The position numbers are program-made. Positions 29,101-32,100 of a stretch of 64,000 nt of DNA are shown piece by piece. Source of the DNA: Escherichia coli (GTDB lineage Bacteria; Pseudomonadota; Gammaproteobacteria; Enterobacterales; Enterobacteriaceae); assembly GCF_002854065.1 (NCBI RefSeq), contig NZ_CP024147.1, one strand, 5' to 3'. The number at the start of each line of letters is the position of its first letter. Position 1 is the stretch's first letter.

Positions 29101-32100
29101 CAACAGTCATGGTTTCTGCCGGGAAGATCATATCACCTTCGTTTTCACGGTCTTCATCATCAAGCACCATTACACCGCGTCCTTCACGCAGCGCAGCCAG
29201 TGCATTTTCAACACGTTCGAAAGGCGTACCAAAAGAGGAAAGTAGCGTCTGATTCATGGTAAAAAAAACCTCACTAAAATTATGGTTACCAGAATCAGGG
29301 CAGTCTTAGGAGTGGCGGCATATAGCCAAAATAACGTGAGCGGGTCCATGCCCGACAGAATCGTTACTCTCTCCCATCCGGACTCTAACCGTCGGCCCCG
29401 GAATTACACCGGATCTGCTGTCCTTTGAGTTCGCACCCAAAGCGCTCGCGGGCTTTCAACTGAGTTGATTTACCGCCGGTGGGGAATTTCGCCCCGCCCT
29501 GAGAATAAGCGGATTCACTATAACGCTAATGATTAGCGGCAGCAACGCATAGCTTCACATAATTCTGGTTTATGACTTACCCTTATCGCACTACAATGGC
29601 ACTCAACACCTATCAGTACAGGGAAACTACAATGATTGACCCGAAAAAAATTGAGCAAATCGCTCGCCAGGTTCACGAATCAATGCCTAAAGGAATCAGG
29701 GAGTTCGGGGAAGATGTGGAGAAAAAAATCCGCCAAACCCTACAAGCGCAGCTGACGCGTCTCGATCTGGTGAGCCGCGAAGAATTCGACGTACAGACGC
29801 AAGTCCTGTTACGGACTCGTGAAAAACTGGCGTTACTGGAGCAGCGCATCAGTGAACTGGAGGCGCGCAATAATTCGGTAGCAGATCTTCAATCTCCTCC
29901 GGCTATCCCGCCTATTGATAAAGCAGAATAAAGCAACACAAAAACGGGCCAGACGGCCCGTAATATCAGTGTTCTAATTCAAGTTCTCTGGTTTGCATCA
30001 TCTGTTGGCAATACCAGGCATAACGTGCGCAAAACCAGGTTCTATGTTCTTCATCCATGTTACCAGTAACGGCCAGAATATCGACCGGGCGACCTTCTGC
30101 GTGCATTCTGGCAAAACTACGCGCCAGGAAATCGAAATTATTTAAAGAATTAAGACTATGATCCATAAGCACATCCTCCAGTTATCGCATACCTTTTAAG
30201 GCCATATGCTTTTTCTGATTTCAGTATTCCCCAATCAGTGTAGTGCCTTTAAACATAACGTGCGTAAATATATTGTCCTCGATCACACTTTTTAGTGAAA
30301 AATAAAAAACCATATTAAAAGACTTTCTCTTCCAGAACTTCTCTAACATGTGTTATTATTAACAAAGATAAATGTAAGCAAGGAAACTATCCCAAAGTAA
30401 ATATTGCGTCACTAAATGGACATTGGAGTGACATATGATTTTATTCGCCGACTATAATACCCCTTATCTTTTCGCTATTTCCTTTGTACTGTTGATCGGC
30501 CTTTTAGAAATTTTTGCGCTTATCTGCGGTCACATGCTCTCCGGTGCTCTTGATGCACATCTTGACCATTATGATTCCATAACCACAGGTCATATTAGCC
30601 AGGCACTTCATTATCTCAATATCGGAAGATTGCCAGCTCTCGTCGTTCTCTGCTTGCTGGCTGGTTTTTTTGGTCTTATTGGCATCCTGTTGCAGCATGC
30701 CTGCATCATGGTCTGGCAATCACCACTGTCGAACCTGTTCATGGTTCCTGTCAGTTTACTGTTTACGATTATTGCGGTGCATTATACCGGTAAAATAGTT
30801 GCGCCCTGGATTCCACGCGACCATAGTTCAGCTATTACAGAAGAAGAATATATTGGTAGCATGGCATTAATTACCGGTCATCAAGCCACTTCAGGTAATC
30901 CCTGCGAAGGAAAACTCACCGATCAATTTGGCCAAATACATTATTTACTACTGGAGCCTGAAGAAGGAAAAATTTTCACTAAAGGAGACAAAGTGTTAAT
31001 TATTTGCCGACTTTCTGCAACGCGATATTTGGCGGAAAACAATCCCTGGCCCCAAATATTGTAATTTATTAATCAAAAGGAAATTTAATAATGGATGATA
31101 TTGTTAATTCTGTGCCCTCCTGGATGTTTACCGCGATTATTGCCGTATGCATTCTGTTTATTATTGGAATTATTTTCGCCAGGCTCTATCGTCGCGCTTC
31201 GGCAGAGCAAGCTTTTGTTCGTACTGGTTTAGGTGGGCAAAAAGTGGTAATGAGCGGTGGCGCAATCGTGATGCCGATCTTTCATGAAATAATCCCCATC
31301 AATATGAATACTCTGAAGCTGGAAGTCAGCCGCTCAACCATTGATAGCCTGATTACGAAAGATCGTATGCGCGTCGATGTAGTAGTCGCTTTCTTTGTGC
31401 GGGTAAAACCTTCAGTAGAAGGGATTGCCACCGCTGCCCAGACGCTGGGGCAACGCACCCTGTCGCCTGAAGACTTACGTATGTTGGTTGAAGATAAATT
31501 TGTCGATGCCCTCCGTGCAACAGCTGCGCAAATGACCATGCATGAGTTACAGGATACCCGCGAGAACTTCGTGCAGGGAGTACAAAATACCGTAGCTGAA
31601 GATCTGTCGAAAAACGGCCTGGAACTGGAAAACGTTTCACTTACCAACTTTAACCAGACCTCGAAAGAACATTTCAATCCGAACAATGCCTTTGACGCCG
31701 AAGGTTTAACCAAACTGACTCAGGAGACGGAGCGCCGTCGCCGCGAGCGTAACGAAGTTGAACAGGATGTAGAAGTTGCGGTGCGTGAGAAAAACCGTGA
31801 TGCACTTTCGCGCAAGTTGGAGATTGAACAACAAGAAGCGTTTATGACGCTTGAGCAGGAGCAGCAGGTTAAAACCCGTACCGCTGAGCAGAATGCGAAA
31901 ATTGCGGCTTTTGAAGCTGAACGTCGTCGTGAAGCAGAGCAGACGCGAATTCTGGCTGAACGACAGATTCAGGAAACAGAAATCGACCGCGAACAGGCCG
32001 TCCGCTCAAGAAAAGTTGAAGCTGAACGTGAAGTTCGCATTAAAGAGATCGAACAGCAGCAGGTCACCGAAATCGCTAACCAGACGAAATCGATCGCTAT

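Follow-up and report, generated by a model that had tools for sequence, protein, structure and literature searches.

The FMN riboswitch is a textbook regulator and a target of antibiotics (roseoflavin, ribocil). A well-described relative of the element treated here is that of ribD (ribDG) in Bacillus subtilis, which belongs to the same aptamer family, has the same six-helix architecture and is an OFF switch for riboflavin biosynthesis. The ribD switch uses an intrinsic terminator and an antiterminator and is kinetically driven, whereas E. coli ribB is controlled without an intrinsic terminator, by occlusion of the start codon together with Rho. The TPP riboswitches of E. coli, thiM and thiC, resemble ribB in being translational OFF switches with an anti-P1 helix and Rho-dependent loss of mRNA, and in having a pause close to the start codon with which the ligand-sensing window ends. 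They differ from ribB in aptamer and ligand. The action of Rho was proposed to be indirect for thiM but direct for ribB.

The ribB riboswitch is already known and extensively characterised, and the present analysis does not change existing knowledge of it. The switch represses the initiation of translation and lowers the amount of mRNA via Rho (PMC11571811, PMC5499598), and a Rho termination score of 3.1 was reported for ribB from ChIP evidence (PMC5499598). For the K-12 sequence the Kswitch was 176 nM, and 23 nM at pause 175, and FMN protected P1 and nucleotides 215-227 from RNase H (Eschbach et al. 2024, PMC11571811). The same study described pauses at 175/181 and 247-249, examined mutants of the anti*-P1 helix, and found that complexes paused at 247 were poor FMN sensors, while those paused at 175 were the best. 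Competition by roseoflavin was observed in live cells (PMC9204756).

The window analysed here is a stretch of 64,000 nucleotides of E. coli DNA (contig NZ_CP024147.1), and all features described below lie on its minus strand unless stated otherwise. A scan with cmscan and Rfam 15 gave a single FMN riboswitch match in the 64 kb, to RF00050 at positions 29362-29510; its score was 120.9 bits (gathering score 66.2) and its E-value 1.1e-27. The alignment covered model positions 1-138 of 138 and was not truncated. The original prediction had placed an RFN aptamer on the minus strand in the 5' leader of ribB, between 29290 and 29512, and had named a covariance-model scan and the six-stem RFN fold as checks; the match was strong, of full length and inside this interval, and P1 to P6 could all be threaded onto the sequence. 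The element had also been called a known one, which is correct. PGAP annotates identical coordinates in E. coli genomes: in an E. coli record with matching DNA the RefSeq/PGAP feature "FMN riboswitch" coincides exactly with window positions 29362-29510. Of 5426 complete E. coli genomes, 5424 matched a 501-bp query covering the site with an identity of 99% or more, and the features annotated beneath the matches were "riboswitch", ribB and ubiK. RefSeq carries the riboswitch for essentially every E. coli genome. From the 3' end of the aptamer to the AUG of ribB there are 104 nt on the same strand. The element is almost certainly an intact FMN riboswitch of the E. coli ribB mRNA that acts in cis as an OFF switch.

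The regulated gene, ribB (28604-29257), codes for a 3,4-dihydroxy-2-butanone-4-phosphate synthase of 217 aa according to the ORF list and to RefSeq on identical DNA. The divergent gene ubiK starts at 29632 (RefSeq). The riboswitch accounts for the long gene-free stretch upstream of ribB, and the value of this result is one of annotation only. That the gap is explained by the riboswitch had been predicted, and this part stood; the size of 270 bp did not, as the distance between ribB and ubiK is 374 bp. A gap of about 275 bp is obtained if a spurious 47-aa ORF at 29533-29676 is taken as a gene. The small ORFs within the leader, at 29306-29440 and, on the plus strand, at 29282-29428, are not genes either.

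RNA positions were anchored on details given in PMC11571811, namely C175/G176, U181, and a helix of 141-149 with 175-183 that contains exactly two G-C pairs. As these details fit no other start, +1 in the literature numbering was assigned to window position 29510, so that RNA position n corresponds to 29511 - n; the RF00050 match begins at the same base. Counted from +1 up to the last base ahead of the AUG, the leader has 253 nt. A putative -10 hexamer, TATAGT, is present at 29517-29522, at positions -12 to -7 relative to this +1, and a putative -35 hexamer, TTGCTG, was read by eye 17 nt upstream of it at 29540-29545. Among nine Enterobacterales, TATAGT and the TTG of the -35 hexamer were invariant and their spacing was fixed. 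A scan for the sigma-70 consensus called no ribB promoter, because the -35 hexamer agrees with the consensus at only three of six bases. The functional unit of promoter, leader and sequestering stem extends over 29249-29545, with its 3' limit in codon 3 of ribB at RNA position 262. The interval first proposed runs from 2 nt upstream of +1 to RNA position 221. It exceeds the aptamer, which it contains completely, but falls short of the full switch: its lower bound of 29290 cuts the 5' strand of the sequestering stem (29286-29298).

The RF00050 match, the PGAP feature, helix mapping and covariation all place the FMN aptamer (RFN element), comprising the junction and helices P1 to P6, at 29362-29510. 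Threading onto the Rfam consensus placed P1 at RNA positions 3-10/140-147, P2 at 17-19/27-29, P3 at 35-38/60-63, P4 at 66-68/92-94, P5 at 98-102/110-114 and P6 at 120-122/130-132, with two further pairs in the junction (33-34/117-118). P3 carries an additional species-specific extension of 5 bp, and P4 is extended by 8 bp. The 5' strand of P1, UUAUUCUC, lies at 29501-29508, and its partner GAGAGUAA at 29364-29371, where it overlaps the 5' strand of the anti*-P1 helix. All pairs of the threaded aptamer were canonical except G68-A92, the innermost pair of the P4 base helix. Folding of the single sequence was less informative. The minimum-free-energy fold mis-paired P5 and P6, and the folding energies of the aptamer (z = -0.81) and of a 281-nt stretch (z = -0.89) could not be distinguished from those of shuffled sequences. 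Folding energy alone therefore neither supports nor refutes the element.

The aptamer fold was also examined by covariation. A degenerate 31-nt pattern for the P2/P3 region, applied to one genome per species, retrieved 120 loci from many phyla, and 107 distinct aptamers were trimmed and aligned with MAFFT. In this alignment 91.5% of the cells were paired, compared with 36-58% when the 3' partners were slid by 1-3 columns, and there were 352 double-change cells compared with 109 +/- 16 in shuffles. Compensatory changes were found in six of eight P1 pairs, four of five P5 pairs, one P6 pair and the three P4 base pairs. P1, P5 and P6 carried swaps between G-C and A-U; one P6 pair was G-C in 67 sequences and A-U in 37. 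Since the search pattern itself dictated P2 and the 5' strand of P3, the invariance of these two is uninformative. RNAalifold, run on the same 107 sequences without Rfam input, recovered P1, P2, P3 and P5 but missed P4 and shifted P6, which is ascribed to the variable P3/P4 loops being badly aligned and not to absence of the helices. The residues invariant in the family are all present in the window aptamer: A57, C60, C61, G62, G96, A107, C110, C117, G118, A119, C120, G122, U123, A125 and A127. This list comprises every column invariant among the 107 aptamers outside the 31-nt search pattern and the trim motif GUCCGGAUGRRAGA (RNA 128-141). That these residues contact the ligand in the FMN pocket is taken from crystal structures (Serganov 2009, as cited in PMC11571811).

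Downstream of the aptamer, the expression platform contains three further helices. Anti*-P1 pairs AGAGUAACG (RNA 141-149, 29362-29370) with CGUUAUUUU (RNA 175-183, 29328-29336), the latter also being the region of the first transcriptional pause (175/181). This helix was present in the unconstrained minimum-free-energy fold and is backed by mutational and RNase H evidence (PMC11571811). The second and third helices share a bifunctional switch box, GCCCUGAUUCUGGUAA, at RNA 210-225 (29286-29301), which takes part in anti-P1 and provides the 5' strand of the sequestering stem. For anti-P1, the aptamer segment UCAGGGC (RNA 9-15) pairs with GCCCUGA (210-216), a duplex of -15 kcal/mol. The sequestering stem is formed from CUGAUUCUGGUAA (RNA 213-225) and UUACCAUGAAUCAG (RNA 249-262, 29249-29262) with 13 bp, and its 3' strand spans the ribB AUG (RNA 254-256, 29255-29257) and codons 2-3. 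A Shine-Dalgarno region, GUGAGG, was read from the sequence at RNA 237-242 (29269-29274) in the apical part of the sequestering hairpin, where weak pairing with UUUU at 232-235 is predicted. It is separated from the AUG by a tract of eight U residues at 29261-29268, defined by alignment with NC_000913.3. A linker hairpin with the stem CGGG/CCCG (RNA 157-160/167-170, 29341-29354) was also predicted. Anti-P1, anti*-P1 and the sequestering stem are conserved helices that are mutually exclusive and compete with P1.

The degree of conservation differed strongly along the leader. In relatives at the level of Enterobacter and Mangrovibacter, identity to E. coli was 84-89% in the aptamer (RNA 1-149), 91-94% in the switch box region (RNA 199-262), 57-73% in the linker (RNA 150-198) and 53-63% at third-codon positions of ribB. 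The aptamer and the switch box are thus strongly constrained, and the linker evolves almost neutrally. The 13-bp sequestering stem was 100% paired and nearly invariant in the nine Enterobacterales; the same was true of the 7-bp anti-P1, and anti*-P1 was 95% paired. The single change in the switch box, A216G, retained both pairings as wobbles. Judged from these aligned sequences, the support for the switch helices within Enterobacterales is conservation and not compensatory change. In the linker hairpin two of the four pairs had changed on both sides, and this helix was 100% paired. Codons 1-3 of ribB are constrained by RNA structure in addition to protein.

For a wider comparison 18 leaders were used, consisting of the window and 17 fetched loci whose RibB match begins at residue 1, and including Vibrio, Shewanella, Rodentibacter (Pasteurellaceae), Halodesulfovibrio and Desulfobacteraceae. 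All 18 ribB leaders, from gamma- and deltaproteobacteria, had an GCCCUGAUUC box downstream of the aptamer and retained AUGAAUCAG. In each of them the GCCCUGAUUC box overlapped two segments, the one that pairs best with the aptamer 5' strand and the one that pairs best with the AUGAAUCAG start region. This physical coupling of a conserved platform to the start codon of ribB in 18 of 18 leaders bears on whether a trans-acting small RNA, SroG, could be the main product of the locus and the regulation of ribB secondary. SroG has indeed been detected as an RNA derived from the ribB leader (PMC7456131), but no target or trans function of SroG is known, and a short leader RNA is accounted for as a by-product when Rho stops transcription early. 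A primary role of SroG is hence extremely improbable, and cis regulation of ribB is the preferred function.

The competition between the helices was modelled by folding transcripts of increasing length. The predicted probability of P1 was 0.80 at 150 nt, that of anti-P1 was about 0.97 at 220-260 nt, and the latter fell to 0.03 at 282 nt, when the 3' strand of the sequestering stem had become available. This modelled series agrees with the published weak FMN sensing at pause 247 and the best sensing at pause 175. The full-length minimum-free-energy fold of -87.9 kcal/mol had the sequestering stem and lacked P1. A model of the ON state in which P1 pairs were forbidden was artefactually poor, with -66.1 kcal/mol, worse than the unconstrained fold, and was rejected; the ON state was modelled instead by explicitly enforced helices and by the length series. 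Enforcing both anti-P1 and anti*-P1 did not abolish the sequestering stem, which persisted in a shorter form (217-225 with 249-258). In thermodynamic modelling the Shine-Dalgarno region and the AUG had an unpaired probability of about 0.4 in both modelled states, so that no exposure in the ON state was seen. The translational step consequently rests on conservation and on the literature and not on the energy model.

The way in which Rho acts was considered with the base composition of the platform. A C-rich, G-poor stretch at RNA 161-230 (29281-29350) is a candidate Rho entry (rut) region: the excess of C over G was +5 to +7 in 40-nt windows spanning it, and -8 to -12 in windows over RNA 101-170, which represent the 3' third of the aptamer. 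That the C-rich stretch serves as a rut site is inferred from the work of Hollands et al. 2012, to which PMC11571811 and PMC5499598 refer. The stretch was mostly unpaired in both modelled states, which gives no evident conformational gating and would suit a purely translational switch, in which termination by Rho is an indirect effect of ribosome-free mRNA and no rut site is exposed by a change of conformation. An indirect mechanism of this kind has been described for thiM (PMC5499598), and the part of the ribB platform that covers the AUG directly, the sequestering stem, is also the most conserved. On the other hand, a direct, conformation-dependent exposure of the ribB rut site, with termination sites in the expression platform, was reported by Hollands et al. 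2012, according to PMC11571811 and PMC5499598. A purely translational switch is for these reasons rather unlikely, and a block of translation combined with Rho-dependent termination is preferred.

Intrinsic attenuation like that of B. subtilis ribD, with the hairpin at RNA 157-170 followed by CGUUAUUUU as a terminator, was weighed as well. Here a small GC hairpin does precede a run rich in U, whose length increases to U8-U9 in Citrobacter and Enterobacter; a short leader RNA, SroG, has been reported (PMC7456131), and a transcriptional component was reported by Pedrolli et al. 2015, as cited in PMC11571811 and PMC7456131. However, the terminator scan found no intrinsic terminator on the ribB strand within the leader. 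The hairpin has only four pairs, and the run of U residues is interrupted and begins 9 nt after the stem. Moreover, this run serves as 3' strand in anti*-P1, a helix of the FMN-free state, the wrong polarity for a terminator that switches expression off, and dependence on Rho is documented (PMC5499598). Control by an intrinsic terminator is therefore very improbable at this locus, and occlusion of the start codon combined with Rho is favoured.

The observations made at this locus, on the identity and fold of the aptamer, on helices that exclude one another and are conserved, and on the genomic context, fit the following mechanism. Transcription from the sigma-70 type promoter would begin at about 29510, and the first 149 nt would fold into the six-helix FMN aptamer. 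Binding of FMN during transcription would lock P1 and leave GCCCUGAUUCUGGUAA free to pair with UUACCAUGAAUCAG. The resulting sequestering stem would bury the start codon and hold the Shine-Dalgarno region in the hairpin apex, so that initiation of translation would be blocked. The untranslated C-rich leader would then become a substrate of Rho, and early termination would cause the ribB mRNA to fall as well. At low FMN, anti-P1 (9-15 with 210-216) and anti*-P1 (141-149 with 175-183) would replace P1. These alternative helices would remove the 5' part of the sequestering stem, ribosomes could load, and ribB would be expressed.

The closest system of all is the ribB/sroG leader of E. coli K-12 (Hollands 2012, Pedrolli 2015, Eschbach 2024), from which the window differs by one base. 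Over the 333 window bases 29228-29560 the only difference from K-12 MG1655 (NC_000913.3) was one extra U, and in the pairwise alignment identity extended from -50 to +283 apart from this base. The window strain has eight U residues (U8), a leader of 253 nt and the AUG at 254, whereas K-12 has seven (U7), a leader of 252 nt and the AUG at 253. The one-U difference accounts for the length of 282 nt of the published full-length construct and for an AUG numbering that is off by one. Published experiments on a sequence that differs by this one U, outside the aptamer, established that FMN is bound, that translation is repressed, that Rho is required and where the pauses lie, and the same is expected here. 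The U8 allele was present in at least 10 E. coli genomes, counted among those listed as 100% identical. The U8/U7 site belongs to the loop and closing region of the hairpin that sequesters the start codon, and it adjoins the 247-249 pause. It is conceivable, though speculative and very improbable, that the polymorphism tunes basal ribB translation or the FMN-sensing window differently between E. coli lineages, or that the prematurely terminated leader, SroG, acts in trans. The K-12 system and the window agree in their promoter, aptamer, anti-P1, anti*-P1 and sequestering stem, and in the gene that follows.

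The 501-bp query around the ribB leader was searched against 5426 complete E. coli genomes. The leader region had no match in one of these genomes and a match at just 95-99% identity in one genome, and the search also returned one additional copy, which was plasmid-borne. Over the 333 window bases compared with K-12 MG1655 (29228-29560), the sole difference lay in the poly-U tract that separates the Shine-Dalgarno sequence of ribB from its AUG (window 29261-29268, minus strand), which has eight U residues in the window versus seven in K-12 MG1655. Seven U residues were also present at this tract in E. 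albertii, Citrobacter and E. cloacae. Among the 107 aligned FMN aptamers, the ribB-linked aptamer of Shewanella sp. KT0246 (positions 12072-12247 of the fetched locus L038) had a P5 loop lengthened by an insertion of 18 nt, while the length of this loop was constant in the 106 others.

Further Rfam RNA matches were obtained on the minus strand of the window. Two Sib antitoxin RNAs (RF00113) lie in tandem downstream of yqiK, at 32976-33124 (143.5 bits) and 33351-33500 (141 bits); they are presumably sibD and sibE, in which case the ORFs of the ibs toxins would lie on the other strand. The match to naRNA4 (nucleoid-associated ncRNA 4/CssrE) at 41420-41490 (79.3 bits) is likely a REP-derived element. 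Within window 53824-64000, a tRNA gene whose anticodon is CAT (plus strand, 53824-53899) is followed by a CP4-like island. The island encodes a DUF4942 protein, the CbtA toxin, the CbeA antitoxin, RadC, an antirestriction protein, a DUF932 protein, a GTPase and an AIDA/Ag43-type autotransporter of 973 aa (59063-61984, minus strand). The Rfam match termed "IS102 RNA" (61928-62164, minus strand) covers the start of the autotransporter gene at 61984 and extends into its upstream leader.

The regions past ubiK were compared between window positions 29931-30221 and NC_000913.3 positions 3185130-3186100 (the K-12 locus L122). In the window strain ubiK is directly followed by glgS, yqiJ and yqiK, an order shared with O145 RM9872, whereas in K-12 MG1655 it is directly followed by the ygiL-yqiG fimbrial operon, with IS2 within yqiG. 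The presence of this operon next to the riboswitch locus differs by strain.
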